Notes under the pieces: generated by a model
Told to the model about the DNA's origin: nothing
The model's database searches: none
The model's input: the letters and a program-made list of their open reading frames with translations, nothing else
Position numbers and translations under genes: made by a program
Part shown: one piece after another, positions 5,970 to 30,424 of the stretch
Layout of the letters: each line of letters starts with the position of its first letter
Position numbering within the stretch: position 1 is the first letter of the stretch
Source of the DNA: Endomicrobiales bacterium
GTDB lineage: Bacteria; Elusimicrobiota; Endomicrobiia; Endomicrobiales; CAWCFT01
Assembly: GCA_963794945.1 (NCBI GenBank)
Contig: CAWCFT010000003.1
Span: 32,001-96,000 of the forward strand
Direction of reading: 5' to 3'
DNA length: 64,000 nucleotides

Positions 5970-6737
5970 ATGATGATAAAGCGTGTATTGCTTGTTGACG
6001 ATGATGAAGGTGTTCTGGCTCTTCTCTCGGCTACATTGGAAAGAGCGGGTTACGGCACATCCGGGGTGGAGAACGGGAAGCAGGCCCTAAACAAGCTTAG
6101 TGAAGAATTTTTTCCGGTCATAATTTCGGATATCATGATGCCGGATATGGATGGCTTGACGTTACTTAAACGGGTCAAAGAAATAAATCCTGACATTCAG
6201 GTAATAATGGTAACCGCACATGCGACCGTAGATGTTGCGATTACGGCACTGAGAAATTCGGCCACAAGCTTTTTAAAAAAGCCGTTCGATCCGGACGACC
6301 TGGTTTCGCAGACAGGGCAGGCATTTGAAAAATACAGGCTTCTTGAAGATAATAGAAAACTTATAGCTGAGCTCAGGTACGCAAAAGAATATAATGAGAA
6401 GATAATAGAGAACCTTGTGTATACGTTGATCGTTATCGATGAACAAGGTAAAATAGTGAAGATAAACAGGGCGCTGGAAGATATGCTTGGCTACTCGCAA
6501 AAAGATGTAGCCGGCGCGCCTCTCTCAAAGATATTTGCGGATGAACTCAAGAATACAAGCTGGGAAGAACTCGCTAAAGAAAAAAAGCTTGAAGACTTTC
6601 CGGTTGAATTCATTGCCAGAGACGGAAACAAGATAAAAGCTCTATTCACAGGCACTATAATAAAGGGACCTGATGGAAATGTGGCGGGTTTTATCGGGAC
6701 CACAAAAAACATCAAAGATAAGGCAGACTTAAAATGA
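5970..6737 (+). CDS. Response regulator, REC plus PAS domain
   Basis: LLVDDD / ISDIMMPDMDG / KP receiver, then a PAS-like domain (VIDEQGKIVKINRALEDMLGYS...ARDG). Confidence 0.85.
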   Translation: MMIKRVLLVDDDEGVLALLSATLERAGYGTSGVENGKQALNKLSEEFFPVIISDIMMPDMDGLTLLKRVKEINPDIQVIMVTAHATVDVAITALRNSATSFLKKPFDPDDLVSQTGQAFEKYRLLEDNRKLIAELRYAKEYNEKIIENLVYTLIVIDEQGKIVKINRALEDMLGYSQKDVAGAPLSKIFADELKNTSWEELAKEKKLEDFPVEFIARDGNKIKALFTGTIIKGPDGNVAGFIGTTKNIKDKADLK

Positions 6738-8960
6738 ACGATACAATATTCTCGCTTGATATTGGAACAAGGAAGATCGGGATATTCGCTACCAGGCACT
6801 ACGATGATTATGCTGAGGTCCTGGTCAACAAGATCGTAGAACATAAGAGCAGGGCTGTCCGCGCGGGGCAGATCCATGATATTGATAAGGTAGCTGCGCT
6901 GGTTTCGGAGATAAAGGCAGTTGTTGAAAAAGAGAGTGGTCTTGAAGTTAAAAAAGTTGCGACGGCCATCGCGGGCAGGAATCTTAAATCAATGAGAGCA
7001 GTTGGTGAAATCAAATTTGACGCGTCGCGTGAGATAACTGAAAGCGAGCTGCGCCAGGTTGAGCTCTCTGCGATCCAGGATGCCATCAACCGTTCGCAGG
7101 ATGAAATAGACGATTACCTTTTTGTCGGGTATACAGTCGTTTCCTGGCAGCTTGACGGGGAAGACATGACAAACCCGTTGAACCATTATGCGAACAGTCT
7201 GCGGACCAATATCATTACCACTTTTCTTCCCAAAAAGGTGTTAGAAAGTCTTTTTGCGGTGATAAAAAAAGCAGGCCTTGAGATATCGTATCTTACGCTT
7301 GAACCCATAGCCGCGGCCGAGGCCGTGCTTCCCGCGGAAATGAGGCATATACCGCTCGTTTTGGTAGACATCGGAGCCGGTACGTCTGACATCGCTATTG
7401 TCTCAAGGGGAAGCATTCAGTCTTTCGGCATGATACCTTCGGCTGGCGATTTCATGACTGAATATATCTGCGGTGAGATGCTGGTAGATTTTATCGAAGC
7501 GGAAAGGATAAAACGTGAGTTTGGCAGTGATACCGGCGCCGAATCTGACGATACCCGGACCATCAAGTATAAAGACATATTTTCCAGAGAATACGAAAAA
7601 AGCTTTAAAGAGATACGCGAACTTACGGCTCCTGCGGTTAAAGAACTCTCTGAAAAGATCGCTTCTGAAATAAAGACCCTGGTGTCCAGCCCCGACGTTG
7701 CGTTAAAGAATTATGCGGTCGTGCTTGTGGGAGGTGGAAGCCTTACGTATGGGCTCGTGTCTCGCCTGGCTGCCACACTAGGCATCCCTGAAAACCGCGT
7801 GGGCCTGCGTTCGCCGGCCATGGTTAACAGGTTCATACTTAATCTTCAACTAATAAAAGACCTACAGCTTAACGAGGCAGGCAGTTACAGCCTCAATAAT
7901 GTATTTGGGCCGCAAACGGCTGTACTGCTGGGGGTTTCGTGCCTATCAGCAAAAATGCCAGCCGCGGCACTAATTCATGTGACGATAAACGACAAAAAAT
8001 CTGAAATAATAAATTTTAAGGAAGGCGGATTAACAGTCATTTCGGCGCTTGTAGCTGAAGGTATCAACAGGCAAAAGATCACCGGCAGGGTCGGTCTTGC
8101 AAAGATATTCTCCTTGAATGGAGTTCAAAGGGTCATTAAAGGGAAACTTCCGGAGCCGGCCAGGATAATAGTTAACGGTGAGCCAGCCGGAATAAATACC
8201 CTGCTTAAAGAAGGCGACAGGATAGAGTTTTTCCAGGCCTCAGACGGCAATGACGCCCGCGTGAGGGTCGCTGATATTCTGCCCCCGCCGGAAACATTTT
8301 TATTTAATCAAAAGCTTTTAAGCTTCCCGGTCAAAGTTACTATAAACGGACAGAGTGCAGTACTAGAAGAAGAAATCCCCGACAACGCGAAGATCGAGAT
8401 CGTAAATGATTATTCGTTATCATCCGCTCTCGTTGTGGCGGGCGTAGCGCCAGAGAACCTTATGGAGCAGACCGTCTCATTTGATGTTCTGGGGCAAAAG
8501 ATTGAAAAAAAGGTCAGGAACTGCATTTTGAAGGTCAATGGGAAAGAGTTTGTTGGCCCGAGTGACATCATTAACGCCACTATCAGCCCATGCGACGGTA
8601 TAATATGTGAAAATATCAGAACCGGCGATAAGAGCTGGAGAACTTGTTGCGGTACCGGGCAAGGGAAGGGACCTCAGGATAAAAATTAACACCGAAGAAT
8701 TTATTTTCCCTGGATCGCACGGAAAAATATTGTTGAACGGCAGAGAAGTTTCGGAAGAGACCGAAGTCAACGACGGGGATATTTTGCGTACTATGTCAGG
8801 CCGCGACGCGGAGGCGGTGCTAGTAGATATTTTTCGCTATATATCACTTGAACCGCGCGACACAGCAGGCAAACGCCTTAAGTTGCTGGTAAACCAGCAG
8901 GAAGCGAATTTCACGACGCCGTTGAGTCATGATGCGGATGTTAAGATCAGTTTTGAGTGA
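6734..8960 (+). CDS. FtsA-family actin-like ATPase with C-terminal ThiS/MoaD-like repeats; frameshift at about 8620 (about 741 aa repaired)
   Basis: LDIGTRKI, EPIAAAEAVL, LVDIGAGTSDIA, AERIKR and LVGGGS motifs, then repeated (I/V)NG...L..GD.I units. The two ORFs join by removing one A at CAGAAC 8617-8622. ATGA overlap with the upstream gene. Confidence 0.82.
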
Positions 8961-12503: not shown

Positions 12504-12532
12504 TTGACAAATAACAGGATCTGTGTTATATA
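12504..12532 (+). promoter_or_regulatory. Sigma70-type promoter upstream of the riboswitch leader
   Basis: TTGACA (12504-09), 17 nt, TATATA (12527-32), with TG at the extended -10 position. An ATAACA...TGTTAT inverted repeat overlaps the spacer. Confidence 0.75.
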
Positions 12533-12550
12533 GTTAGTGGAAACAAGAAG

Positions 12551-12660
12551 GCTGTCTGAAAGTTAACGACAATAGCAAACTCCGGGAAACCGGAGGACGC
12601 AAAGCCACGGGGCTAAAGATAGGGGGCTATCAACGCCAGCCGGGTTACCGAAAAGACAGC
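12551..12660 (+). ncRNA. GEMM-I riboswitch aptamer, A20 variant (predicted 3'3'-cGAMP type)
   Basis: ACGACAATA-GCAAAC-TCCGG-GAAA-CCGGA-GGACGCAAAGCCACGGGGCTAAA...CAGCCGGGTTACCGAA, closed by GCTGTC/GACAGC. The base before GCAAAC is A (12574). Confidence 0.9.
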
Positions 12661-12726
12661 TGCAAGACGGGTCTCAAAACGTTATTTGTTTGACATTAAA
12701 TCAGCAATACAAGTCCCCCTATCTTA

Positions 12727-12768
12727 AGCTACCGGGCATCACGAAAGTGAGCGGTAGTTTTTATTTTT
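12727..12768 (+). terminator. Intrinsic terminator, expression platform of riboswitch 1
   Basis: GCTACCG...TCAC-GAAA-GTGA...CGGTAGT followed by TTTTATTTTT. Adjacent CCCCCTATCTT (12715-25) is complementary to aptamer AAGATAGGGGG (12616-26). Confidence 0.8.
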
Positions 12769-12811
12769 GATGTGAGATCGCCCCCGATTTCACGCAAAGT
12801 TCTTTAAAAGA

Positions 12812-12914
12812 AGTTCCGATAAAGGCAAACTCCGGGAAACCGGAGGACGCAAAGCCACGGGCCTAAAAGGCGGAGTTGATCAGCCGCTTCAAGGTAGCCG
12901 GGTTACCGAAGACT
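12812..12914 (+). ncRNA. GEMM-I (c-di-GMP-I) riboswitch aptamer, G20 variant
   Basis: CCGATAAAG-GCAAAC-TCCGG-GAAA-CCGGA-GGACGCAAAGCCACGGGCCTAAA...GGTAGCCGGGTTACCGAA. The base before GCAAAC is G (12824). Confidence 0.92.
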
Positions 12915-13021
12915 AAGCCGTTTTCAAGTTCCGCGCGTATCGCGGGATGAGAGCCCCCAAACGGCTGATAAAGAGCAAGGGTTAACGCGATTTATGACCC
13001 GAACTCCTTAAAAGTTTAGGT

Positions 13022-13059
13022 AACCGGATTGTCCGTGGCGACGATTCGGTTTTTATTTT
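13022..13059 (+). terminator. Intrinsic terminator, expression platform of riboswitch 2
   Basis: A 12-bp stem AACCGGATTGTC / GACGATTCGGTT followed by TTTATTTT. GGTAACC (13019-25) and CCGTGGC (13033-39) are complementary to aptamer GGTTACC (12901-07) and GCCACGG (12854-60). Confidence 0.8.
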
Positions 13060-13073
13060 GCGAGGGTAAAAAG

Positions 13074-13460
13074 ATGGAGAAAAAAATGGTTTTGAAAATG
13101 ATTCTCACGGCACTGGCTCTTCTGGCTGGCTGGACGGTTCTCCCGTCTGCCGGTTCTGAGCAGGCTTACAGTATCGTTACAAATTTTCCGAATCCATTTG
13201 ATAGCCGGGAAGGGTCAACGACCATCTGTTACACACTTTCCTCCGAATCGGAAGTACAGGCAAAGATATACGATCTCCTTGGAAATCTTGTCAGGGAGTA
13301 TCCGTCCAAGATCGAAACAGCCGGGATAAAAACGGTTGTTTGGGATGGGACGGACCAGTATGGCGCCAAAGTTTCCAAAGGCGGCTATATTCTGACGGTT
13401 GAGATTAAAAGCGGTTCCGAAAGCATAATTGCTACCCGCAAGATTGGCGTGATCCACTAA
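13074..13460 (+). CDS. Small secreted protein: signal peptide plus a single FlgD-Ig / T9SS type-A CTD-like domain
   Basis: GAGGG RBS then ATG 13074; hydrophobic N-terminus; NFPNPF...IYDLLGNLVR...WDGTDQYG.KV..GGY...RKIGVIH. Confidence 0.8.
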   Translation: MEKKMVLKMILTALALLAGWTVLPSAGSEQAYSIVTNFPNPFDSREGSTTICYTLSSESEVQAKIYDLLGNLVREYPSKIETAGIKTVVWDGTDQYGAKVSKGGYILTVEIKSGSESIIATRKIGVIH

Positions 13461-13472
13461 GAGAGGAAGAAA

Positions 13473-15104
13473 ATGGAAAGGTCGATGAAAAACACGAATC
13501 TTAACAAGACCATAAGCAAAATCGCATTGATTTTGCTGACGGGATTCGTATTTTTATCGATAAATGTCATCAGTCCGGAGCGCATATTCGCTGACGCTAC
13601 CGGCGGTCAACCTGGACAATTCCTTGCGTGGGGCGCGGGCGCAAGGTCGCTTGCGATGGGCAGTGCCTTTTATTCCGTTTCGGATGACGCCTCTGCTACT
13701 TACTGGAACCCGGCGGGACTTGCCCAGATGGACCGCAAAGAATTAATGGCTCTGCATGTCAGTCTGTTTGCCGACACGAACTATGATTTTATTTCTTATG
13801 TACACCCGACCCCAAAGTACGGCGTGTTCGGGTTGAACCTGACAAGGCTTGATTCGGGCGGCTTTGAAAAGGTCAATATCACCTACGATTCGACTCAAAC
13901 CGATATAATAAATATTCAGAACATGGGCACTTTTGATGATGTGCAAACCGCGTTAACCGGCGCTTACGGCAAGAAGATCAGCGAGCATCTTTCGATAGGA
14001 GTATCAGGCAAATACATAACGCACACATTAGACACGTCAACAAACGGTTTCCTGACTTTCGATGTTGCCACAATGGTGCAGGGGGTCAGTAAAGAGCTTC
14101 CCAAGCTTAAGCTTGGGTTCGGCATACAGAACCTTATGGGCACTAAATTCGGCGATACGGATGACGTGTTGCCTATAATATTTCGCGCTGGAGTAAGTCA
14201 CCCCTTCTTAAGAGATAAACTTTTAGTAGCTTTCGATATAGATAAAAACATGAATACCAGCATGGGCTGGCACATAGGAACCGAATACTGGTTGTTGAAT
14301 TTCGCGGCCCTCCGCATCGGTTTCCAGGGCGGCAATGGTCTGACAGAAACTGACGCTGGGTTTGGAGTAAAATACAAGGATTATGGCATAGATTATGCAT
14401 TCGGTATACAAGACCTGGGGCTTTCAAGCAGGATATCGGGTACCTGGAGATTCGGGCCTTCCATCTCTGAGAACCGCGAAATCCTAGTTCGCCGCTACAT
14501 GCAGGAAGGCATGGAGGCGTACCGTCAAGGCAACTTCCTGCTTGCGTTCAACAGGCTTGAGGCAAGTCTTGACATAGACCCCGCGAACAAGGATGTTCAA
14601 AAGATGCATAGCAGGATGCAGCTTATAGTAGGATACCTCCAAACAGCTGCGGGTGAGAGCGAAGAAGCGGTATCTATCAGAAAGGGCGTTGCCGGATATG
14701 TTGAAAGCGATGAGAAGGGTGCTGTAAACGCTTTCAGATATGCTTATTACAAGAACCCAAATAATACAAAACTGCTTGCTTTATTAAACAGAATCGAAAA
14801 AGATGCCGGTATAACGACAACCGAGGCCTACAAAGAAGATGTTGTCGGCTTTACAATCATAGACCAGAAAGTTTACGACGCACGCCAGTCAATAGTAGAA
14901 GGTAAATATGATCAGGCGCTTATAAAGTGCCAAGAAATACTGAACCTTGAGCCCGCGAACCTTACAGCTATGGAAGTCATGGGTTCAGCGTTCTTCATGA
15001 TGGACCAGCCGGATAAGGCGAAACAGGTGTGGATGAAGGTTATGGAACTTGATCCGACAAACAAGGTCGTGCCCGAGTTCATTAATCAGCTCAAAGAGAA
15101 ATAA
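13473..15104 (+). CDS. PorV/PorQ-family outer-membrane barrel with C-terminal TPRs
   Basis: Signal peptide; FLAWGAGARSLAMGSA...DDASATYWNPAGL; GTEYW...LRIG; IDYAF; TPR-like helices at the C-terminus. Confidence 0.82.
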   Translation: MERSMKNTNLNKTISKIALILLTGFVFLSINVISPERIFADATGGQPGQFLAWGAGARSLAMGSAFYSVSDDASATYWNPAGLAQMDRKELMALHVSLFADTNYDFISYVHPTPKYGVFGLNLTRLDSGGFEKVNITYDSTQTDIINIQNMGTFDDVQTALTGAYGKKISEHLSIGVSGKYITHTLDTSTNGFLTFDVATMVQGVSKELPKLKLGFGIQNLMGTKFGDTDDVLPIIFRAGVSHPFLRDKLLVAFDIDKNMNTSMGWHIGTEYWLLNFAALRIGFQGGNGLTETDAGFGVKYKDYGIDYAFGIQDLGLSSRISGTWRFGPSISENREILVRRYMQEGMEAYRQGNFLLAFNRLEASLDIDPANKDVQKMHSRMQLIVGYLQTAAGESEEAVSIRKGVAGYVESDEKGAVNAFRYAYYKNPNNTKLLALLNRIEKDAGITTTEAYKEDVVGFTIIDQKVYDARQSIVEGKYDQALIKCQEILNLEPANLTAMEVMGSAFFMMDQPDKAKQVWMKVMELDPTNKVVPEFINQLKEK

Positions 15105-15162: not shown

Positions 15163-16969
15163 ATGGAAAAAATTATTAAACGAATTCTAATTGTTTTTGC
15201 GGCTGTTTTTCTAACAGTAGCGCTTCGCTTTCCGCTTGGCTGGTCTCAGAGCACGCAGGATGATTCCCAGCAAAACAACCTGATGGACAAAGAGGCGAAA
15301 TTCGAGAAAGATAAAGCAGAATACCTGCAGTCGTTCGTGCTCGACAAGATACTTGGCCCCGGCAAGGCTATAGTTATAGTAGATGTACAAATGGGCACAG
15401 AGACAAAGGTTACAAAACAGGAAGCAAACCAGAAGAAATCAGAAAGAAAGAAAAGGCTGGGCGAAGTAGAATACCTACTTCCCGGAGTTCCGAACCCTAA
15501 ATCGGTAGCGCAGGAGTCAGCACCAGGCGAGTCTAAAGAAGAAACAGGCCAGGCGCAGGAAACAAAGGTGCAGGTGTTGACTGTTATAAAGAAACTTATA
15601 GTGACCGTTTTGTACGATGAAAAGATCACCCAGGATAAGCTTGATATAGTTAAAGACGCGATCATGTCTTCTATGAAGATAGACGTAAAAAGAGGAGACA
15701 AAATAGAATTTAAAAAAACAAAATTCACGCAGGGTTTTGTTGACGAACTGATGAAACCTCAGATACTCGTGCCTATCATTTTCGCTATGATGCTATTGTT
15801 TTTCCTGTTCGGCCCGGTAGCCAGTTTCCTGAGGTCTTTTGTCAAGACAATGCGCGAAAAAGGCGGAACAGAGGTCACCGTGGACTCGAAATTCGAGGGC
15901 GCTGGAGATGAAGAAGGAAAGGGCGGTGGCGGCGGCAACGGAGCCCTCACGGCATCAGAACTCGAGGCGCTGGAGAAAGAGAAAAAGAAATATCATCCTT
16001 TTGATTACATCAATGATGAAAACCTCAAGCGCATGGTTTACCTTATAAGAAGAGAGCCTCCACAGAGCGTGGCCCTTGTCGTGAGTTATCTTAAGCCCGA
16101 ATACGTCAGAGAGGTCTTGAACGCACTGACCCCTGAAATGCAGGCAAAAGTCGCTTTGGAAATGGCCACTATACGTTCCATGGATGAAGAGCAGGTCAAA
16201 AAAATAGACGACCACATCAAAGAAAAAATAGAGTTCCTAATTGGCGGTATATCGCACCTTCTTGAGGTTATCGACCAGGTAGACAAAGTTACACAGAACA
16301 ATATTTTTGATTATTTAAGGAATGAAAAACCAGAGCTCTATGATAAGGTAAGGAAATTCGTTCTTATGTGGGAAGATATACCGAATTTCCCGGATCAGGC
16401 GATGCAGGTGATAATAAGGGAGCTGAAAACACAAGATATGGCAAAGGCTCTGCGTAACGCAAGCTCAGAACGTGCTTAATAAGTATTTTGCCAATATGTC
16501 GGCCAATGCCGCGGCTATATTAAAAGAGGAAATGGAATACGGAAGGCCGCTTACGGACGCAGAGATTGAAGAGGAAAGAAAGCGAATAATAAATTTGATA
16601 AAGCAGCTTGAGAAAGACGGTCGCGTTTTCATAAGAGAAAAACCGAAGACCGACGTTCTTGAAGGAATAGAAGACAACGGCGGCGAACCCGTGCCTGAAG
16701 AGCAGGGCACGGCGAGTTACGAAGAGTATTATAACGCAGGAGCCCAATATTATGAGTTGTCGCAATTTGAAGAGGCGTTATCGTATTTTGAGTACTGCGC
16801 GCAGTTGGATCCTAACCAGCCGGCAATCTATCAGTATCTTGGAAATACATATTATGCGCTCGGCCGCAGCGCCGAAGCGATAGCGTCATTTGAAAAGGCA
16901 TTGGAACTCAATCCGGAGGATCAGGGTCTTCGGGCGTGGCTCTCAGAGCAAAAAAACGCCATAAGTTGA
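15163..16969 (+). CDS. FliF(YscJ C-terminal)-like / FliG M+C / TPR fusion; frameshift at about 16470 (about 601 aa repaired)
   Basis: N-terminal hydrophobic segment. FliF-like LDKILGPGKAIVIVDV, IKKLIVTVLYD and IDVKRGDKIEF. A TM helix. FliG-like EPPQSVALVVSYL, FVLMWEDI and ALRNAS..V..KYFANMS..AA.ILKEEME. A TPR pair. The ORFs join by removing one A at CAGAAC 16466-71. Confidence 0.82.
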
Positions 16970-17081: not shown

Positions 17082-20000
17082 ATGGGCTTGTTCAAGAAAG
17101 ATAAACTAAAAGAAGAACAAAAACTCTCTGAGGCAAAATTGCCGAAAAGCCTAGAAGAAAAAAAGTCTATTTTGCCTGAAAGTGAAGACCTCTCACACTC
17201 AAGACAACGCGCTGAGGAACAGATAAGGGCGCTTGAAGAAAAAATTCAGAACCAGAGAGACAGCTGGGGCGCCAAAATGAAGGAGAAGGAAGAAGAAAGG
17301 ATATCTCTAGGCGCTCAGCTTGAGATGCTTGTACGTAAGGTTCAGAACGAGCGCGAGAAAAAAGAAGGTGAGTTGAACCTCCTTGAACAGCAGGTACAAA
17401 GAGACCTGGTTGAAGCCCAAAAATCTCTTGAAAATGAGATCAAAACATGGAATGAACGCCTTAGCGTTAAAGATAAAGAGATCGAACAAACAAAAGAGGA
17501 AGCGGAGTTGATCGAAACCAGAAAGAGGATAGAGAGCGATCAGAATTCAAGAGCTTTGAAATCCCAGTTGGAACAGATCGATCAAAAATATAAGACTCTT
17601 GAAAGAAAAATGCTCGAAGAGCAGAATACGTGGATAACTAGGATCAAAGGCAAAGAAGAAGAAATTTTAGGCGTAAAAACACAGGTCTCGCTTAAAGAAT
17701 CACAGATATCTATTGAAAACGAGAAGGATCAGACGCTAAAAAAAGAAAAAGAAACGGCATGGCAAGGCCAGGTTCAGGAATTAGAAACAAAGCTTAAGAC
17801 GCAGGAGCTTGAGTTCGAAAAAGAATACAAGAGGAAGCAGGATGAATTATCGGCCTTAAAAACAGCTATCGAGGCCAGGCTCAGCTCCATAACCATGGAA
17901 GCTGAGAAAAGGGAAAAAGAAACTCTGAGCCTTATTGCCAGGACCGAAGACAGGATAAAGATAATAAACGGGCATATTACCGAAGAGAATAAACATTGGC
18001 AAACTGTGCTTAAAGCCCGGGATGAGGAATTCAATAAGCTTAAAGTCGAACTTATGCTCCGCGAAAGCCAGGAAAAATCCGAAAGAGAGAAAAAGTTTCA
18101 GGAACTCGGAGAAGCTGAATCGCTGGCCAATAGAAAAATTAAGGAAATACGGCAGAAAATTAATGATGAAAAAGAAAACTGGAAAATTAGCCTCGATGCA
18201 AAAGAAGAAGAACTGAAGCTGCTGAAGATACAATCAGAACTTAAGCTCAAAGAAGTTCAGGAAATGTGGGAAAGCAGGAAGACAAGAGCTCAGGAAGAGA
18301 AATCGATCCTTGAGAAAAAACTCGTAGCGATCAGGGACAATTTTGAGCAGGAAAAGAATAACCTGAAAAAAGAACTAGATATTAAGACCGCGGATATAGA
18401 ACAGTATGAGCAAAAATGGCAGCAGAGGCAGAATGAGATCGCTGCTGCGAACACAAAAGAGCTGGAAGAGCTCAAGGCTCGCAAAGAAATACTTGAGGTG
18501 GAACTAGAGGAGCTTGAGGAAAACCTTAAAAATGAGAAGGCGAAGTGGGCAGGCCTGATACTTCAGAAAGAACAGGAAGCCAATGTCGTAAAAAATGAGC
18601 TAAAAGGCCGAGAATCTTCAGCTTTGAGGGATCTTGAGATCCTTGATATGCAGTTAAATAAGGAACAGCAACCGCTTCTCGATAAAGTCCGGGATATGGA
18701 AAAGCGTTTTGAAGACCACAAAAAACTTGTCAAGGCTGAACTCGGGCGCCGGGAAGCCGCGAAAACGGCACTTGAGGAACAATTCCGTGTAAGAGAAGAA
18801 AATTTGCTTCTGCGCCATAACAAGCAATCTGAAAAAATTAAAGTCCTTGAACAGGAAAATCTTTTAAAGATCTCAGAACTGAAAAAAAGCATGGAGGAGC
18901 AGTCTCAGTCCGCTCTTAAGAGGATAAATGAACTTAAGTCGGAAGAAAACATGGTCAAAGAAAAGCTCTCTTCGCAAGATAAGACAATAGCGGAAGAAAA
19001 GGCCAAACTTGAGGAACAGTATAAACACCGTAACAATATTTTGTTAGAATCGATACAAAATCTTGAGATAGAAAATGAGCGGCAAAGAGGACAACTGCAG
19101 GCCGAATTGGAAAATATGACAAAGGCTGCGGAAGAGATTAAAACAGAACTTGAGAAAAAAGAAAATCAGCTTTTGGCAGACCTGAAGCTTAAAGAAAAAG
19201 AGCAGGCATCGATAAAGACGTCTTCGGAAGCTGAGGTCGCAAAACTAGCCGAGGCGCTGACCAAAAACAATGAAGAATATGAGCGTGAGATAAAAGCTCA
19301 CAGGGAATCAATAGAGGCGCTGGAAAAGTCGTTCAAGAGCAAAGATGCCCAATTTCAAGCTGAAATAAAGAACATAAAAATAGAATGGGATAACAAGCTT
19401 CAACCCTTAAATGACGAACGCAAACAGCAGGAAGCGCGTCTGGCATTGTCAAAAAAAGAAGCCGAAGACAGAGCGCTCGCTATAGAGAATGCCATAAAAA
19501 TGTCCAGGGAGCAATACAAAATACAGGAAGAGAACGCCGCCAGAAATATATTGCAGGAAAATTTAAGGATTCAAGCGATAAAAGAAAAGCTTGCAAAAGA
19601 GGCTGCCGCTCTGAATCTGGAGATTGATACGCAATCCAGGCAGGCAAAGGAAATAATTGAAAAGCTTGCGCTTAGAGAGAAGGCCCTCGAAAACAATATT
19701 GCCGTTGAAGACCAGAGGCTGCACGCAGAAAGGGTCAGGGTAACCCAATTCTACGAAAATCAGCAAAAACAGCTCAACGAAACAATTAACAAGCTTGAAA
19801 AGGATTATTCGGATTTCGTAAAAAGCGTTGATGCGGATATAAAACTTAAAAATGCTGAACTGGTTCGGGAAGAAAAGAGAGTGAGAGATCTTGAGATGGA
19901 AAATCTCAAGGATATGAAACAAAAAGAGCAGGAGCTTTCGTTATTAGAAAATGAAAACAAAAAAGAACTCGCCGCGTTGTTTGCAGAGTACAATAGGATT

Positions 20001-22653
20001 AAAAATGAAAAAAGCGCTGAGATTAAATCAAAAGAAGAAACAATGGTGTCGCTTGTAAAATCACTGCAGGAGAACAAGGTCATTTATGATAGAGAGCTCG
20101 AGGCGCTCAAATCCAGTCTTGCCGCGGAACTGGAGCCGGTATCAAAGCGCAGGCAGGAGTTAAAAACGGATTTTGAACGGGCCAGAAAAGAGGCTGAAGA
20201 GAAGCTTGTCGCGGCCGCTAAAAGAATAGAATCTCTTAAAGCCGAGCAGGTAGCTTTGACCGCGGAATTTGAACGAAGACACGCTGAGTCTTCCGCGAAG
20301 ATGTCCTCCGCTAAAGCTGATTTTGACGGCCAGGTCAAAACACTGCTCGAACAGAAAGCTGGATATGAAAAAGAGGCAGCGGAAACTATAGCCGCCAAGG
20401 AATCTGAGATAAGCGCGCTAGAAAGCGAGGCCAACCAAAAGAAACTCGCTTTCGAAAAGCAAAAAGGGGGTTTGCAGTCACAGGGGCACTCGCTGATAGA
20501 AAAGGTTAAAGAAGAGATCTCGTCACTGGAAAAGGAAATGTCGCGGCTGGAAAAAGAATACCCGCAGGTCCTGCTGGAGCGTGAGAAAGAAATATCGCTG
20601 CTGACCTCCAGAATAGAGCAAAGATCTATAGAGAACAAGGACAAGTTGGACCTCGCAGAAAAAAGTACTGAAAATTATCAAAAGCGAGCTGAACGCCGTA
20701 TCACACAGCTTAAGGGGCAAATAAAGGAAGCGCAGGAGCACCACAAAAAAGAACTGGAATCGATCGAGGCCAGGCTCTCCAATATTCACTCGGATATAGC
20801 AAAGAAGGAGAATTCATACCAGGAAGAATTCTTAAGAGAAGGAAAAATATTTGCCGAGCAAAAATACGTTCTCGAGAAACAGAAAGCAGAATTTGGCGAA
20901 AAACTCAGGGACCTGCAGTTGTATTCAAGGGAGCAGTTGAGGCAAAAAGAGAAAGAAATACTTATCCTCCAGAGTGATCTGGCTGAAAAAGAAAAAGCCT
21001 GGGAAGAAAGTTGGAAGCAAAAGGAGCAGGAGCTGGCGATAGAAAAAAATTCGCTTTTGCAAGAGCTCGAGAGTCTTGACGCAAAGCTGAAAGACGAAGA
21101 GGAAACGGTCAAAAAAAGAATAAATGAAAAAGAACGTGAAATACAGTCTCTGGAAAATACATACTATACAAAACTTGAAAACATGTCGGCCGAGATGTCT
21201 TCAAAAAAGAAAGTGTGGGAAGACACTAATTTAGGCCTTAAGAACCAGGCTGAACAGCTAAAAAATAGCCTGGCCTCGCTAGAAAACAGTTGGGAAGAAA
21301 CAAAGGCACAAAAAGAGAAAGAGTTGTCCGTTCTTAAATCCAATCTTGAATTTTGGGAATTACGTTCAAAGAACGAAGAAGAAAAAAGACTGGCCGCGTG
21401 GGAAGAAGAAAGATCCGGCCTTGAGAGCAAAGTTAAAGACGCAGAAAATAAGCTGGCCGCGCTGAAAAAAGAATATTCTGCGAAGAACGAGGAGAAGGAA
21501 GCCGCGTTAAATGCCTTAAGGGTCCAGGGTGAAGAGAACGAAAAGGAAAAACTGAATGAACTAAAAAAGATTGAGACAGACTATACAGCGGCACAGAACT
21601 CACTTGCGCTGGAGATATCAGCCTGGGAAAAGAAACTCAAAGAAGAAACTCTCAGGACGGAGAAGGAAAAGAAAGAGATAGAGCGTGAGCTTGAAAAGCT
21701 GAAACTTGAAAGCGCCCTAAAAGAGAACGCAGCAATGTTCTGAGCAGCAAAAGAACGAAAGGAAATGGCGTAAACTCCAGAGAGACCTTGAAGAACAGCT
21801 GATAGACTATGAACGCCAATTTGCCGACGAAAAAGAGAGCTTAAAGAGTAAGCTTAACATGAAGGCAGAAGAGATCAGTACGCTTAAAGTAAGAATGTCG
21901 CTTAGAGAAGAAAGACGCCAGTCAGAGATAAAGCACCGCCAGGAAGAGACACAAAAGATAATATCCGGCCTGGAATCAGAGCTCAAAGTGCTAGAAGATA
22001 AATACGGTAATAATATGGGCGCCTTAAATACAAGCCTGGGAAAATCAAGAAAAGAACTTGAAATGTTGAAGCAAGAAGCTATGGAAAAAGAAGAGAAGTG
22101 GGAAAAAGAAAACGAAAGCAGGGAAAATGCCGCGTCGAGCGCATATGCTTTGATAAATAAAGATCTTGAGGATGTGGAAAACGAATTGAGAAAGGAGAGC
22201 GAAAGGCTTGAGAGGATGCTGGATATAAAGCAGAAACAAATCGCCAATTTGACAGCACAGATGCAGTCTAAAGAAGCCGGCCTTATAACTGAAAGGGATT
22301 ATTCTCAGATAATACTGCAGGGGTTGCAGAAAAAAGCCGGCGATCTTCAGGGAGTACTGAACAAGCTCCAAAGGAATGGCAAAGAAAACGAAAAAGAAGG
22401 TCTTGGGCGCGTTTTCGAAGAAGCTATCGAGCATTATAACAGTGGTAATTACGAGAAAGCGAAAGAAAAACTGGGGCAAATATTGAAATCAAATCCGGAG
22501 TTCGCCGGGGCTTATCAATATCTTGCGCTATGCAGCTGGAACCTGGGAGAAAAAGAAGAGTCTTTGAAACTTGCCAGGAAAGCGTTCGAGCTTGAACCCC
22601 ACAATGAAGAATTGAAACTCTGGATAGAATATATAGAAAAAGAAAGTAAATAA
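17082..22653 (+). CDS. Giant coiled-coil protein with C-terminal TPR; frameshift at about 21738 (about 1856 aa repaired)
   Basis: E/K/Q/L-rich helix with 61-aa periodicity. Removing one T at GTTCTG 21737-42 reads through in frame into ORF 21859-22653, which ends in a TPR (AYQYLALCSWNLG...AFELEP). Confidence 0.85.
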
Positions 22654-22678
22654 AAACAAATCACTCAGGAGGACTAAA

Positions 22679-25600
22679 ATGGCTGACGACAAAAAACCAA
22701 AAATTCCGCCTCTTCCGCCGCAGAGGCCGCCAATGCCGAAACCGGCGGGTGGAGCGACTATACCTAAAGCGGGCCTGCCACCCCAGGCGCCAAGGCCGCA
22801 AGGGGTGCCGGTTAAACCTGTGATGCCTGCGATGAAACCTCCGGTAGCCGAACAAGCTCCTGCGAAGTACGCGCAGGGAAATCTTTCTCCAGCATCTAGT
22901 GAAGTCGACGAGATAAGAAAACAAATGGAATCTCAGATCATGGGCCTGCAGTATCAGCTGCAAGAAGAAAAAGAAAAACTCCTTCTTCAGACAGTCCGCG
23001 CGAAAGAAGAAGAAGCTATGGCGGCGAAAGTCGAAGAATCTCTTAAAGATATACAAGACAGGTTGCGCCGCGAGAAACGCGAGCAGGAACTGCAGGACTC
23101 CTTAGCGAAGTCCGAGCTCCAGGTAAAGGAACTCGAGCAAAGGGTCAGTGCGGAACGCCAAACGTGGGTTGAAACTTTGAAATCGCAGGTCGGTCAGAGG
23201 GAGAGCCAGGATAAGGAGCTCGAGCGCGATTTTGAGTTGAAGCTTAAGGAACTTGAGCGGCGCTGGCACGAAGAGAAGCTTGGCTGGTCTCAGGCTCTAA
23301 GGGGTAAAGACGAAGAGGTGGCTAGGCTCAAAAGGGAAGCTGAAGCGGCCATTACCGCTGAAAAAGGCAATTCCGAAAAACGCATCTCACAGCTGGAAAC
23401 AGAAAGGGACGCTTTCAGAAGGGAGATCAAGGAGATCGTTGACGTACGTGACCAGGAACGCGCGATGACCGCCTCAAAACTCGAAGCTCGCGACAAAGAG
23501 TTCCTATCGCTCAAGGCTCAGCAGGCGATGGTAGTTACCCAGTTGCGCCAGGGAAAAGAAAAAGAGGACCAACTTAGGGCGCTTCTGGAAAGAATGCGCG
23601 CCGAGAAAAACGGCCTCATCACCCAGCTGGACGCGAAAGACAAAGAATACTTTATGCTAAAAACGCAGTTCGCTCTCTATCAGAACACGGGCAAAAACTG
23701 AGCAGGAAAAGCTGATGAAAGAGATGCTGCTCTATAAAGAACAAATGCAGAAAGACCGGGATAACTGGGAAGTGAATATAAAAACTAAAGAGAACGAGCT
23801 GAGGATAATTTCCGATAACGCTAAGGATCGCGAGAACTCTTTAAAACAGTTGCTTGAGAAAAAAGAGATTGAACATACGTCATTTGTCAGGGAATACGAG
23901 GACAAGCTGAGGGCTCAGGAAGCTGCGTTCAGTCAGGTTGTCGAGAAGAAAGAAAGCGAAGCGTCTGCAGCGGTCAGGAAGGCTGAAGAGAAGATCATTG
24001 CCCGGGAGATCGAGTTTAAACAAGCGCTTGAAAAAAAGGACCTCGAGAAGGTTTTGCAAATAAGAGAGATGGAAGAGAAGATGCGTTCCCAGGAAGCTGT
24101 TTTCAGGCAGGCCGCTGAAAAGAAAGAAATTGAATTATCGGCTTTTGCCAGAACAGGCTGAGGAAAAACTTAAAGCCAGAGAGATTGAGCTGAGGCACTT
24201 GATAGAACAGAAGGATGCTGATATAAAAGAAGCGGTTAAAGACAATGTGGTAAAGATAACGGCCCTCGAGCAAGCTCACGGTCAGCAGATCGCTCAGAAA
24301 GACCATGAATTCAGAAATCAGCAATTGCAGTGGATCGAACGTATTCAGGTGAAAGAAAAAGAGATCAACGCGGCCGCAGAAAAGGAGAACACGTTAAAGG
24401 TGAGGATCGCACAGGTAGAACAAGTTGTACACCAGCTGGAAGAAAAACTTAAAAATGAGACCGAGTCACTTATCGCTGAGCGGGCCCACAATGAACAGAA
24501 CGAGAGGGAGTTCAATGCCGCCATCGTGCGAAAAGAAAATGAGTTCAAAGAAGCAGTTTCGAAGCAGGAAGAAAAATTACGCGCCATTGGAAAAGAGCTC
24601 GCCGAGTCTCTTGCCCACTCGCAGATACTTAACCTCGAAATAGCCAAAAGAGAGCAGCAACTCATTCAATTCAAGTCTGATATAGAACGGAGCGCACAGT
24701 CGGCTGCCTTGCTAGCAAAAGAGAACGAGAGCAAATCAATAGAGCTAACAGAAGCCTTGTCTCGCGCTCAAGGCCTAAGCCTTGAAGTGGCGATGAAAGG
24801 TCAGCAGCTGATTCAGTTCAAAACGGAGCTCGATAGGAGCGAAAAAACAATTGAGGCGCTCAAGAGCGAAAACGAAATAAAAATAAAGGAATTAGCCGAT
24901 GCCGCGGCGCGTGCTCAGGGCCTCGGCCTAGAACTCGCCAAGAAAGAGCATGAGCTCGTTCAGGCAAAGATCGATATAGATAGGGCTTCACAGGCGTTCC
25001 TCGTCATGGAGAAGGAAAAAGAAGGCAGGATGAAAGAGGTGTCCGAGCTTATCGAAAAGAGCAGAGAACTCAGCTCTCGCCTTATTGAACAAGAACGTAA
25101 CAGTAGAGAGCTCTCAGAGCGCATAAGAGATAAGTCGGAAGAGGCCGCGCGTGTGACAGAAATTTTAGCGCGGACGGAGAATGAGCTTAAGGTGGCACGC
25201 TCGGGCTTCCTAACAGAACTTTCAAAAAAAGAGAATGAAATAATCTCTTTCAGGGAGAAAGACAGCGACTCAAGGGTCAAGATATCATCCTTTGAGCAAA
25301 GGATTAGAGAACTTGAGGAAAAACTTGAAAATGGGGAACAGGCCATTAAGGGAAAAGATGATATGCTGCGCGATAAGGAGACAGAACTTCTTATACAGCA
25401 GGAAAAGACGGAGCAGGCAAAAAAGGAGCTCAATGATAGACTTTTAAAAGAGCAGGAAAAATTCACACTCGCGGTCGATCAACTTAAAAAAGAGTCGGGT
25501 GATAAGTTATTACAGGAAGAATCTAAATTGAAGGCGCAAACGGATCTCTTAAAAGAAGAGGCCAGGAATGCCGTAAATTTGAAAGAGCTTGAAATAAGGG

Positions 25601-26676
25601 ACCTGAGGAATGAAAAAGAGAATCTGAAGACAGAAGCCGCGAAGATGTCGATGGAGATAGTTTCCAAGGAAAAGGATATATATGAATTAAAGAACAGCCT
25701 GCTCTCCAAGGAAAGAGAAATAACCCATGAAGTGGAGCGCAGGGAGTCTGTGTTTGCTGGCGAAAGGAACGCGATGTCGGAAAAAATACGGATGCTTGAA
25801 GATGCCCTGAGAGAGGCTCAGAACAATTCAGGGGAAGGGGCTAAGCGCCTGGAACAAGAACTCAAGGAAAAAGTAGAGGAGTTTACCGCAGAAAAGAGAA
25901 ATAAAGACGAAGCGATAACCGCCCTAAAAGCGGAGAATAATGCCTGGCGCCTGGAAAAGGAAAAGCTGCTCGAGCTTAAGGCCCAGTCTGAAGACATGAA
26001 CCAGGCGGAGCTTATGAGCGTGCAGAGGAAACTCTGGGAAAACAAAGAGAAGTCCAACGAGCAGCTCAAGGAAATGGAGCGGGAGATCACCGCACTCAGA
26101 GATGCTCAGAAAGACGTCGAAGAAAAGGTAAGAACGGAGCTACTGAATAAATACAGCGCGAAGATAATGGAGCTGGAAAAAGAGAATGAGACGCTGTCAA
26201 AAGATGTTTCTACAGAGGTGCGTACGCTCAGGAGCTCGCTGCAGGAGGAACTTAAGAAAAAAGAGGAGCAGCTAAGCACCGAACGCTCTAGCTGGGAAAT
26301 GAAGCTTAAGGAGAAAGAAGACATTATCGCCGACATGGCGAAAAAAATGGAGAGTGCCGGTGAGAAACAAAAGGAAAAGGACGTTATGTCCACCGTGCAG
26401 GCGATAAAGAACGCCGTAGAGACAAGAACTGTGGGCTCTGACGCTTCTATAAACGACAAAACGTTGGTCATAGAAAGGGCTAAAGACCTATTTGATAAAA
26501 CCGCGGTAATAGAGCCTCGTTCGAAAAGCGATGACACTATCCCGGCTGTTAAGGGCATAGACCTGCCGTCTAGCGATAAAAGGTCGCTTTCCGGTCTGAT
26601 CTGCGGTATATGGAAGAGCATCAACGAGCCCGTCATAGAAATTAACGTTAAAAAAAATGAAGATAGAAAAGGATAA
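22679..26676 (+). CDS. Giant coiled-coil protein with Pro-rich N-terminus; frameshifts at about 23684 and 24152 (about 1331 aa repaired)
   Basis: GGAGG RBS. Three ORFs join by removing one A at each of CAGAAC 23681-86 and 24149-54. Internal 29-aa and 49-aa repeats. Confidence 0.83.
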
Positions 26677-27190
26677 TTTAGCTATGGGAACAAAAACGGA
26701 ATTTGAATGGGAAAAATATGAGAAGCGATTTGCTGAGCTGGAAAATCGTATTTCCTGCCCTTCGCGCCTAAAACCATCGGCCTCTAATAATAAATCAAAT
26801 GATATAACGGACTGTTTTGGGAAACACGATAGCCAAAAACACGAAGAAACAGTTGTTTTGCCTGCTGTGCGGGACAGCTCCTCTTATATGCTCGCAGAAG
26901 AGGTCAGATTTTTGAAGGCGGAGATAGCGCAGCTAGCGCAGATTAAAGAAGAGTCACTAAAACTCAAATATGACATAGCAAACATAGCAAGCCTTAAAGA
27001 TTCCGAAATAGCCAGACTTTTCGCAAGGAATAGACTGCTTGAAGAAGAAAATAACGGGCTTAAACTGAAGATCAGTAGATACAATTTTGACACTGCGGAA
27101 AGCTTCCGTGAAAGAGAACACAGGCACCATAAGAAAGAAGGACTGCTTGGATGGCTGAAGAAGCCTATGTTAGTTATTGAACCGGAATAG
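26657..27190 (+). CDS. Small coiled-coil hypothetical protein
   Basis: Operon-like overlap with the upstream gene; heptad segment LAEEVRFLKAEIAQL...; ends GLLGWLKKPMLVIEPE. Confidence 0.7.
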   Translation: MKIEKDNLAMGTKTEFEWEKYEKRFAELENRISCPSRLKPSASNNKSNDITDCFGKHDSQKHEETVVLPAVRDSSSYMLAEEVRFLKAEIAQLAQIKEESLKLKYDIANIASLKDSEIARLFARNRLLEEENNGLKLKISRYNFDTAESFREREHRHHKKEGLLGWLKKPMLVIEPE

Positions 27191-27194
27191 GATC

Positions 27195-28315
27195 ATGGGG
27201 CATATAAAGATATACATTTCGTTTTCGTTGCTCTGCGCGGTGACTTTGTTCTGCGTGCGCGAGCAACATGTCGCGCTCAAAAAAGATGCGTCCAATCCCG
27301 ACCAGCCTGCCGGGAATGGGCAATATTAAACCCGCAAAAACAGCACCTATATCTGCAACGCCGGCCGAGCAGAAAGGGGCGCCAGAAAAGGAAAAGCCAC
27401 AAGAGGTGAAAACTCCTGAGGCCGCCGAACCGGCAGTTAAGGAAGAAGAAACAGAACACCTTAGGAAGCACAATGCCGGGCGCAGGTGTTGAAAAATCAA
27501 CAAAAAGTGAAATAGCTCCGGAACCGGCGATAAAAATCAACGCAAGCGCAAAAGAAGAGCAGAAGGCGCCAAGCTTAAATTTGCTGCCGCTCAAAATTAT
27601 TTTTAGTAATTCTGGGAACGCAAAGTCACTGGATGACAATGAATCTCACCCGAGCGTAACCGTCAAGCAGCCTGTGCCTGAAGTCAAGCAGGAACAGACT
27701 AAGCCGCCAGAACCTGTTATAAAAGAAGAACAAAAGCCTGTACCAGCGCCCATTGAAGAAAAACCGCAGGAAACAGAAGAAACAATAAATACTCCGCCTC
27801 CTGTTCCAGTGCCAGAGCAAAAGCCGTTAGTTCAAGAAGAAGAGAAACAGGCGCCGGCCGCTCCGGTAAAAGAAACACAGGAAAATGTGGCCCAGCCTGA
27901 GCCGGTAAATAGCGCCGAGCCCGAAGTTAAAGAAAAAGAGGAACAGAAAAGCGTTATTGAGAAGAAGGCGGAGCCTGTCGAAGTGGAGCCGGCCCCCACG
28001 GCACCGGCAAAGGTGCCCGCACCGGTTCCTGCACTCATCCCGGCTCCCGTGAAGAGTGCGGCCAGCGTTGCAGGCGTTAAAATTGACAAACAGGCAAAGA
28101 AAAAATTATTTCTAGAGCATAAAAAGTCGCAACAGGCAAAAGCCGAAAACCAGCGCCAGGCCAGGATGCATACGGTTGTCGTTGGGGACAACCTGCAGTC
28201 GCTGGCCGAAAAATATTATGGTGATAAATCCATGTGGGTAAAATTATACGACGCAAATAAAGATAAGTTAGAGAAAGGCACGCTGGAAGCAGGCCAAACA
28301 ATTTTGATCCCATAA
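27195..28315 (+). CDS. Lipoprotein with long Pro/Glu/Ala-rich linker and C-terminal LysM; frameshifts at about 27250 and 27455 (about 372 aa repaired)
   Basis: Removing one T at GTTCTG 27248-53 creates the lipobox L-S-A-C. Removing one A at CAGAAC 27452-57 joins to the LysM HTVVVGDNLQSLAEKYYGD...W..LYDAN...GQTILIP. Confidence 0.83.
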
Positions 28316-28365
28316 ATTTCAGAACCGTTTTACATATGGGCCCATTAAACCGGGCGGAGGCTATA

Positions 28366-30424
28366 ATGGACGAATTTAAAGACATCGATACCGAACTCAT
28401 GAGGCTCAAGGAAGAGCTCAACTCAAAACATGAAGATTTCAGTCACGTGAAATTCCCATCGTCCGGTGATTACTGGCGTTCGCGCCTTGATGAAGAAAGG
28501 GTGCTCTGGGATAAAAAAGTTGTGCTTGGCAGCGAAGAGAGAAAGGCGCTCGAGAAGAAGCTAAACGAGCAGGAAGAGCTCCTTTCGCGCTACAACCAGA
28601 GCGTCAGGGAAATGGAAAGAAAGATAGAGAACGATACAAAACTCTGGGAGGACCGCCTAAGGATCAAAGAAGCCGACATAATGATCGAAAAAAGCCGGCT
28701 ACAAAGCGAAGCCAGGGTCAAAGAGATCGAGCTCGAAAGGCAGAGCCTCATGAAACACGTAACCGAGCTCTCTCTTAAAATATCAGAACTGCGCGACGAC
28801 CAGGCAGCAGAGATAGAAATACTGAACATGCATGCGAAGCAAGACGCCGACCTTTATGAACAAAAACTCAAGGTTGCTGCGGCCGAATCCGACGCGCTGA
28901 AGAACAGGATGTCCGATGCGGAGAGCGTACTGAAAGCCCGTATATCGGAACTTGAAAAGCTTAAAGAAGAGTACAGGGTAAGGCTTGAGGCAGCGGAAAA
29001 GAAGGCCGAAGAGGAAGCACGAGCAAGGTTCGCAAGCGATGAAGCGGCGTCAAAAACAAGAGCTAAGTCGGAAGAAGACAAGATCCAGATAAGAAAATCA
29101 TTTGAAACCACAACTATTAAATTCGCCGGTATCATCAATAAAGATGTGGGTGCCCTGGCCGGCCTTTCCGGCATTGCCGCCGATCACGAGCTAAAAAAAG
29201 AGACACTACTTATCATTAAAGGTTTGACCGGAAAACTGCAGTCGGAGTTGGGCGGGTTCGAGAAAGAACTTAACTTAAAATTCGATGTGGACGACAATTT
29301 CAAAGCCGCTATCATCATGAGTGAAGATGAAGCCGCCTACTGGGAAGCGGCCCTCTCCGGCACGCGCGTGACGATGGAAAAACTCGGCGTAAAATCGAAT
29401 GTCAAAAAGTCGATTCCCGCTTTGAAACCGTGCGTTTGTGTCGTTTCGTTAAAAAAAATCAAGGCGGCGAGAACGATCAAAGCCAGGTGGCCATTCGTCC
29501 CGGTTATAATATATGGAGAACTCCCCGAGAAACGCAAGGCAAAACTTGAAAAGGGCGGTTTCATAACGGTATCTTCATACGGAACAGCGGACGATATGTA
29601 CCAGTCGCTTTGCGACGCTGCAAAGAACAGCGCTGCCCAGCCGGACTACTGGGGCAAAGTAAAAATTAAAAGCAGGTGGGTCCTGCCTACTATGTACGCG
29701 GCCGCGACTATGTTGCTTGCCGGCCGGCTTCATTTACATGAACAACCCTGCCCTGCTCGAAAGGTTCGGCAGGGTGGCATCCTACAGCGTGCCTTACAGC
29801 CAGCCTTCCAATATAACATTTGACGGCGCATACCTCTGGGGCTGCGATTGGTACGGCCAGAGCATATACAAACATGACACAACCCAGGGGCTGAAGCTCC
29901 TTAGGATATTCTGTTTTCCCGGCAAGCATTTTACGGCTATAACCTGGGCCGGCGGCTACCTCTGGAGCGCGGACGCTTGGGAAAATAAGATATACAAACA
30001 CAACACGGACGATAACTTCACCGTGCTTGAGACCTTCTCTACGCCCGGCACCGCAATAAGCGGCCTCGCTTTCGACGGGAAAAACCTATGGTCGTGCGAT
30101 TCCTCGGCTGGCATGATATACCGCCACACAATCGACGCCAACCTTACCGTTGAGGACGCTTTCGAGAGCCCCGGCGCGAGCCCGTCAGGGTTGTTCTTCG
30201 ATGGGAAAAATCTCTGGAGCGTCGATTCAAAGATAAACAGGATATTCCGCCACAAGATGGATGCTACCCTCAGCGTTGAGAAGTCGTTCATCCCGCCGCT
30301 TTACGACCAGAAGAATTACAACCTCAGCGGTATCGCCATAAAGAACAACAAGTTCTACGTGTGTTCAGAAAAGCTTGGAAAAGTATTTAGTTTTCCCGCG
30401 GAGAAAATGGAAGAGGTAAAGTGA
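28366..30424 (+). CDS. Coiled coil - degenerate receiver-like domain - TM - beta-propeller; frameshift at about 29722 (about 685 aa repaired)
   Basis: GGAGG RBS before ATG 28366. A hydrophobic segment (WVLPTMYAAATMLLA.AGFIYM) spans the break. Propeller repeats (SGLAFDGKNLWSCD, SGLFFDGKNLWSVD) resemble those of 11166-12386. Confidence 0.75.

Follow-up and report, generated by a model that had tools for sequence, protein, structure and literature searches.

A conserved A20/G20 tandem of predicted c-di-GMP-I OFF riboswitches upstream of a FliF-FliG gene cluster in an Endomicrobiales bacterium

A mixed tandem of OFF riboswitches, the first with A and the second with G at specificity position 20, is, as judged from sequence and orthologs, a real and conserved element upstream of a surface and motor gene cluster in an Endomicrobiales bacterium. 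This cluster is probably shut off by both switches at high c-di-GMP, and both probably read c-di-GMP because no known cGAMP-making enzyme was found in the bacterium. Here, the window denotes the whole stretch of DNA analysed (64,000 nucleotides of contig CAWCFT010000003.1), and G000 the assembly it belongs to. The leader comprises the following features.

12504..12532, + strand: sigma70-type promoter (TTGACA, 17 nt, TATATA), recognised from the sequence and not called by a strict scan
12550..12661 (Rfam 12564-12652), + strand: GEMM-I aptamer 1 (RF01051, 83.9 bits; constrained fold)
12574, + strand: A20 specificity base in J1/2 context CGACAAUA (U19-A20); context and base the same in L081, L082 and G004
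12715..12735, + strand: unit-1 antiterminator strand, pairing with the aptamer P3 5' strand 12608-12626 and overlapping the terminator 5' arm
12728..12768, + strand: intrinsic terminator 1 (stem 12728-12758, U tract to 12768), -13.3 kcal/mol
12814..12910, + strand: GEMM-I aptamer 2, canonical G20/A47/C92 (RF01051, 83.6 bits)
12824, + strand: G20 specificity base in context CGAUAAAG; G in all orthologous leaders (8 of 9) but L082, which has A
13019..13039, + strand: unit-2 antiterminator strands (13019-25 with 12901-07; 13031-39 with 12854-62)
13022..13059, + strand: intrinsic terminator 2 (stem 13022-13051 and U tract), -15.2 kcal/mol, with two-sided pair changes in G005 and G011
13062..13076, + strand: ribosome-binding site GAGGGT and start codon (13074), from the sequence

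The two c-di-GMP-I aptamers were returned by an Rfam scan of the window, with covariance-model scores to be read against a gathering threshold of 35 bits for RF01051. An earlier note on this DNA had described two GEMM aptamers with an identical core and different preceding bases, and this description holds: a 37-nt core starts at 12575 and, 250 nt further on, at 12825. The base just before it, A12574 in the first copy and G12824 in the second, is position 20 in Vc2 numbering, giving pockets A20/A47/C92 (with a G21-C46 pair) and G20/A47/C92. The P1/P2/P3 junction with its GNRA tetraloop, A47 and C92 is present, P2 pairs covary in 10 sequences, and the constrained fold adds a distal P1 extension (12550-57/12654-61) to aptamer 1. 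The G at position 20 that characterises c-di-GMP-I is found in aptamer 2 (G12824) and not in aptamer 1 (A12574), which instead has the A20 and C92 of GEMM-Ib. Compared with the pocket of the Geobacter aptamer Gs1761 (A11 A12 U13 A14 C15 ... G74 C75 C76; PMC7288161), aptamer 1 agrees in AAUA and differs in G21 and A91, which stand in place of C15 and G74. For aptamer 2 the GGC-variant model RF03167 was the match with the best E-value, but position 47 is A, not G, and the aptamer is therefore canonical.

The spacing of the two units is not conserved (232-290 nt in six other leaders in which both aptamers were located by script). Further, the identical core is less striking than it appears, because much of it is family consensus and two GEMMs from the same genome often share an identical P2 hairpin (11 of 76 such pairs, against 16 of 1005 pairs from different genomes). 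Assembly collapse of a repeated core is an unneeded explanation, as L082, G003 and G006 likewise have identical P2 in both units. Two more GEMMs are found by RF01051 elsewhere in G000, on contigs C7 and C4. The first (L001, G000:C7:46452-46660), upstream of an fn3 protein, has G20 and is paralogous to unit 1, with which it shares P2 and the layout of antiterminator and terminator, its P3 being near-identical; it is a natural control for aptamer 1. The second (L004, G000:C4:320937-321066) also has A20; the ribosome-binding site overlapped by its 3' strand belongs to the gene for a conserved 168-aa protein without a Pfam match, making it a probable translational OFF switch. In unit 2 of G003, G012 and G004 (L055, L056 and L058), an inserted hairpin of 40-60 nt follows the P1 5' strand, ahead of position 20; this form of J1/2 is unusual and common to that clade.

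Because A20 recurs in three orthologous leaders (L081, L082 and G004), we regard A12574 as real. A sequencing error was considered and set aside on this recurrence and on the end of a contig from sequencing run X2, a loose end in which A20 is accompanied by a different P2 and joined to the unit-1 platform. A12574 was not confirmed in data from the same strain: the only contig identical to the window starts at 12575, one base after A12574, and no same-strain read covers the base. A contig from run X4 covers the two aptamers; all but 2 of its 37 differences are listed, none of these at either specificity base, and it apparently carries the A/G arrangement; these comparisons concern DNA only and cover at most 14% of the stretch.

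Transcription would start near 12539, given the promoter at 12504, and a TTGAC(A) -35 box precedes aptamer 1 in all nine orthologous leaders. An internal promoter between the units was rejected: the TTGACA at 12690 is without a correctly spaced -10 box and is not kept in L081. Each unit has its own terminator, and the three complementarities given in the earlier note are exact (12715-25 with 12616-26, 11/11; 13019-25 with 12901-07, 7/7; 13033-39 with 12854-60, 7/7). The unit-1 antiterminator is in fact longer than first noted, pairing roughly 12611-26 with 12715-30, including the terminator 5' arm. Its duplex (-38.0 kcal/mol) was equalled in none of 500 dinucleotide shuffles, and across 10 homologous units 95.3% of cells are paired, with two two-sided changes (18 of 500 shuffles reached as high a value, and slid registers gave 30-68%). 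In G005 and G011 its G-run and C-run shorten together. The base stem of terminator 1 is kept in 10 of 10 units, and in the run X4 contig a U-A pair at 12739/12750 has changed to C-G. For unit 2 the duplex alone is not significant (34 of 500 shuffles were as strong), so the case for its antiterminator lies in the first helix, GGUAACC/GGUUACC, which is invariant in 9/9 leaders; the second helix (13033-39) is broken in 3/9 orthologs.

When the aptamer fold was enforced, the predicted terminator pairing probability rose from 0.003 to 1.0 in unit 1 and from 0.12 to 0.999 in unit 2. This is in line with the earlier proposal that ligand binding turns each unit off; based on the folding and on conservation in nine orthologous leaders, both units are predicted to be OFF switches in one transcript from one upstream promoter.

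The most probable explanation, and one that we hold with reasonable though far from complete confidence, is a c-di-GMP OFF tandem that is pseudo-cooperative, with A20 tuning affinity and both units reading c-di-GMP in the cell. The promoter at 12504 would produce a single transcript with two complete and independent transcriptional OFF riboswitches. Without ligand, a downstream strand would invade the aptamer P3 or 3' strand and capture the terminator 5' arm, allowing read-through into the operon, while bound ligand would lock the aptamer and free the terminator, so that transcription stops. The G20 unit would be the canonical high-affinity c-di-GMP sensor, and the U19-A20 unit a bispecific or lower-affinity variant binding c-di-GMP via protonated A20 and adding a second termination step for a deeper and steeper shut-off. 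The operon would thereby be on at low c-di-GMP. Sequence, family membership, conservation, predicted folds and enzyme signatures are what the analysis shows; the ligand, the affinities and the switching in vivo are inferred.

The earlier note had taken A20 as the mark of the 3'3'-cGAMP class, a use that published measurements and the orthologous operons, which swap A and G, do not bear out. A20 alone is not selective: Vc2 G20A binds c-di-GMP at 53 nM and cGAMP at 120 nM, and the natural Cbe 1-2 aptamer (A20) binds them at 30 nM and 463 nM (PMC6140456). In the same source, the cGAMP preference of Gs1761 varies from about 1200-fold to about 3-fold by construct and assay, and A20 aptamers as reported there range from about 1200-fold cGAMP-selective to c-di-GMP-preferring and are often bispecific; what beyond A20 sets selectivity is left open by that study. 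In a Desulfobacca aptamer with A20, the gain in cGAMP affinity came at little cost in affinity for c-di-GMP (PMC9481103). Those that are single, bispecific aptamers combine A20 with a c-di-GMP-I scaffold (G21-C46, as in Vc2) and are able to bind c-di-GMP via protonated A20, as aptamer 1 may; they have measured KD values, whereas aptamer 1 is a putative binder paired with a G20 unit. As G000 has a DAC, c-di-AMP was also considered as the ligand, and was rejected: the c-di-AMP-binding mutant needs G20A together with C92U (PMC7288161), and both aptamers here have C92.

The enzyme repertoire of G000, an assembly that is 85.87% complete and contains frameshifts, points to c-di-GMP. This reading is supported because the c-di-GMP machinery is present, with 9 Asp-type GGDEF domains (from 11 GGDEF matches) and 8 HD_5 (HD-GYP) matches. 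Hypr enzymes carry Ser at the site of PleD D344 (PMC6456294; PMC8835794), located here by its 26-residue spacing to the GGDEF motif, and this Ser is absent from all nine G000 domains, which have Asp, in the 86% of the genome assembled. Nor was Ser found at the readable sites of G003, G004, G016, G063 and G119, where 28 of 44 matches were read at the site and 14 were not fetched. Profile searches for SMODS, DncV-like, cGAS and Mab-21 proteins were blank in G000, at the same completeness; NF041078 and PF03281 matched nowhere and had no positive control, which makes these two blanks weak. The Rxx(Q/N) motif, the signature of cGAMP phosphodiesterases of the HD-GYP type (bioRxiv 10.1101/600031), occurs in none of the eight HD_5 matches of G000. 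The cGAMP synthase that the earlier note predicted for this genome was consequently not recovered by any of these searches. Several frameshifts in GGDEF and UPF0164 genes on G000 contigs C11, C14, C4 and C16 suggest indel errors in the assembly.

The incomplete assembly gives room for a NOR gate whose cGAMP is extracellular or is made by a Hypr or CD-NTase enzyme encoded in the missing 14%, and the phylum does hold related genes, namely a Thr-type GGDEF in G390 and a DncV-like gene in the relative G005. We consider this extremely improbable, as the DncV-bearing G005 has only G20 GEMMs and completeness is 90% or more in 28 of the 35 A20 genomes, none of which has a Hypr-type GGDEF by motif. We know of no uptake route for cGAMP that would serve an external source. 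In the underlying scan, which required exact spacing and had no known Hypr enzyme as a control, the Asp-site motif gave 213 matches, present in 35/35 A20 genomes, and no Hypr-type GGDEF appeared in any of the 35. Across 401 phylum genomes the Ser/Thr motif matched 13, with 14 matches of which 8 were translated, the other 6 being near-copies of a non-GGDEF match; one true GGDEF (Thr) resulted, in G390, a genome without an A20 pattern match. This protein (L171, G390:C8:10195), in which the Hypr site is Thr and the cross-dimer position Met, is the only Hypr-like enzyme seen in the 401 Elusimicrobiota genomes.

A true two-input NOR gate would alternatively have unit 1 selective for cGAMP and unit 2 for c-di-GMP, with 3'3'-cGAMP made by an enzyme that lacks the Hypr Ser and has escaped recognition, a reading we consider unlikely. 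It draws on the conservation of the U19-A20 subclass across the phylum, on the recurrence of A/G in G000, L081, G004 and apparently the run X4 contig, and on a precedent in Geobacter, where the riboswitches were known before the cGAMP synthase (PMC6456294). One candidate synthase would be a Rec-GGDDF subfamily (NPLTGLPGN, G-F/Y-x-x-G-D) without the cross-dimer Arg and the His, of which G000 has three Rec-GGDEF genes. However, the Asp that reads guanine is retained in this subfamily, which occurs equally in G005, G006, G008, G011 and G012, whose GEMMs are only G20. The corresponding proteins (G000:C8:30643-33716 and C11:136601-137293), which lack the conserved Asn-Arg and His, are widespread in the phylum, and a PDB search with one of them returned PleD as the closest structure; no GGDEF subfamily restricted to A20 genomes was seen by eye. 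The lack of a recognisable cGAMP phosphodiesterase also counts against this gate. In 42 genomes the Rxx(Q/N) motif gave 22 matches, of which one is a true HD-GYP, with RxxN (L322, G013:C9:12858); this candidate cGAMP phosphodiesterase belongs to a genome in which both of the two GEMMs have G20. Further, A/G pairing is not required, given six G/G tandems and one A/A tandem among the orthologs.

The orthologous tandems, written as unit 1/unit 2, are A/G in G000, L081 and G004, A/A in L082, and G/G in G003, G005, G006, G011 and G012. Since the A/G-bearing G004 groups in the tree with the G/G-bearing G003 and G012 (100/100), apart from G000, position 20 of unit 1 has changed at least twice; whether G/G is ancestral was not resolved by the trees, and we dropped that claim. 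Toggling also occurs at other loci: the GEMM of the fn3 gene has G in G000 and A in G003, G004 and G016, while at the small C4 gene A is found in G000, G016 and G119, and G in 7 others. Within the order, 7 of 43 GEMMs are A20, in 4 of 11 genomes, and their clustering by genome is not significant (P 0.12). Because A and G are interchangeable at one operon while the enzyme repertoire is unchanged, a single ligand is the simplest account.

For a phylum-wide view, a loose A20 pattern was run over 401 genomes and matched 106, most of them without a P2 hairpin; 34 were kept by eye and, with G016, form the set of 35 A20 genomes, in which RF01051 confirmed 29 of 29 and 4 more, and G063 and G119 stand on pattern and sequence only. 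Among 29 genomes chosen for an A20 match, 41 parsed GEMMs are A20 and 20 are G20, after 4 of 65 rows were dropped as duplicate mis-registers; 31 loci were unparsed, many of which were then read by eye. U19 accompanies A20 in 38 of 41 GEMMs of this set vs 3 of 20 with G20, and the corresponding figures for the order are 9 of 10 and 9 of 37, the relatives not being independent. This coupling suggests a selected subclass rather than drift, because it is strong and reproduces the A11-A12-U13-A14 contacts of the cGAMP-selective Gs1761. The tie of A20 to U19 also counts against a reading by c-di-GMP only, as do the several genomes of family f24 in which every readable GEMM is A20, a situation also known from Geobacter, and the retention of CGACAAUA, which is the same in G004 as in G000 at a protein identity of 68%.

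For leaders of the same operon, a hand tally in a sample enriched for A counts 20 genomes with one A20 switch, 4 with one G20 switch, 6 with G/G, 3 with A/G and 1 with A/A. Many of the single A20 and G20 leaders have one architecture, abutting the start codon. These counts bear on a third reading, in which A20 is close to neutral: unit 1 would accept A or G, or respond only weakly, control would lie mainly with unit 2 and the A/G difference would be functionless. The repeated toggling at three orthologous loci without clustering by genome is consistent with it, and so is the stability of the unit-1 antiterminator, which lies 11-15 kcal/mol below the enforced aptamer fold, a gap that a weak binder would struggle to close at equilibrium. 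It is nevertheless very improbable in our judgement, since aptamer, antiterminator and terminator of unit 1 are all conserved with compensatory changes, and in the 20 genomes with one A20 switch that switch is the sole GEMM before the operon.

An illustrative two-terminator model used published A20 KD values (PMC6140456), an assumed unit-2 midpoint of 50 nM and 90% maximal termination, and gave a read-through of 0.02-0.07 at 1 uM c-di-GMP and 0.09-0.35 at 1 uM cGAMP. Based on this model, a NOR table would be expected in vitro if cGAMP were added, whichever type of A20 aptamer is present. Of the two-messenger NOR gate proposed in the earlier note, the two predicted OFF units and this modelled in vitro table thus remain, and the second input in the cell is unsupported, as no known cGAMP enzyme was found in G000.

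Several known systems resemble this arrangement in part. Sherlock et al. 2022 report 347 c-di-GMP-I doublets, and their Table 2 has no c-AMP-GMP/c-di-GMP-I gate (PMC9481103). Tandem c-di-GMP-I riboswitches, including the triple tandem of B. thuringiensis, are likewise complete switches in series with their own terminators and pseudo-cooperative control (PMC9481103); here, in contrast, the aptamers differ at position 20 and the expression platforms are unrelated, and in the available text of that survey the doublets are not split by position 20. The Geobacter GEMM-Ib riboswitches (Gs1761, Gm0970 and the tandem before GSU2885) share with aptamer 1 the A20, the A-A-U-A in J1/2 and C92, and tandem GEMM-Ib ON switches are known there (PMC6456294). 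Those are, however, ON switches in cells with the Hypr enzymes GacA and GSU1937, whereas the wiring here is predicted to be OFF and no Hypr enzyme was found in the assembly; Gs1761 further has C15 where aptamer 1 has a Vc2-like G21 in the G21-C46 P2 pair (PMC7288161). The SAM-I/AdoCbl NOR gate of Bacillus clausii metE and the Desulfobacca AdoCbl/c-AMP-GMP tandem (PMC9481103) are also two serial switches with Boolean output, OFF/OFF giving NOR, but they join two aptamer classes, whereas here there is one class and the second input is putative. In our literature search no paper was found on a mixed A20/G20 tandem or on these riboswitches in Elusimicrobiota. Examples of such tandems, and further bases that determine selectivity, may be given in Kellenberger 2015, Nelson 2015 and Ren 2015 or in the supplements to them.

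If both units read c-di-GMP, as we consider most probable, A20 is an unsafe marker of cGAMP signalling and many A20 riboswitches of Elusimicrobiota would be mis-called. Aptamer 1 (A20), aptamer 2 (G20, same P2) and the C7 paralog (G20, same P2) differ mainly in J1/2, and these three G000 RNAs constitute a near-isogenic natural set for the determinants of cGAMP selectivity beyond A20. If, on the other hand, aptamer 1 were cGAMP-selective, at least 35 genomes would need an unrecognised synthase, and the logic gate would be of a type absent from the table of the 2022 survey (PMC9481103). A genuine cGAMP/c-di-GMP NOR gate requires such a synthase or a missing or external source of cGAMP; if true, it would be built from two copies of one aptamer fold, and in the first case would reveal a new cGAMP enzyme. 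A bolder proposal, which we think doubtful, is that the U19-A20 subclass of Elusimicrobiota senses 3'3'-cGAMP from a third synthase type, neither Ser-type Hypr nor CD-NTase, yielding a natural NOR gate over a flagellum-free FliF-FliG machine.

The genes downstream of the leader are the following.

13074..13460, + strand: first regulated gene, a small secreted-looking FlgD-Ig / sorting-domain-like protein (PF13860, E 4e-11)
13473..15104, + strand: UPF0164 and TPR protein (PF03687 and TPR matches), presumably PorV-like
15163..16969, + strand: FliF_C-FliG_M-FliG_C-TPR fusion by domain matches, in two ORFs split inside FliG_C; the halves abut in relatives
17082..30424, + strand: downstream co-oriented ORFs for giant coiled-coil, TPR, LysM and propeller-like proteins

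The split of the FliF-FliG fusion is a probable frameshift, and the ORFs at 17082..30424 probably belong to the same operon as the three genes before them. Among 17 genomes a single one gave a flagellin match; G000 gave none, yet has three FliG_C loci and four MotA/ExbB matches. Two further paralogous FlgD/UPF0164/FliG clusters are located on contigs C4 and C16. Upstream of the riboswitches lies a full chemotaxis cluster, which includes a CheB methylesterase fused to an H-NOX (HNOB) domain (window 2480-4093) and an FtsA/PilM-like ATPase with extra C-terminal repeats (window 6734-8960).
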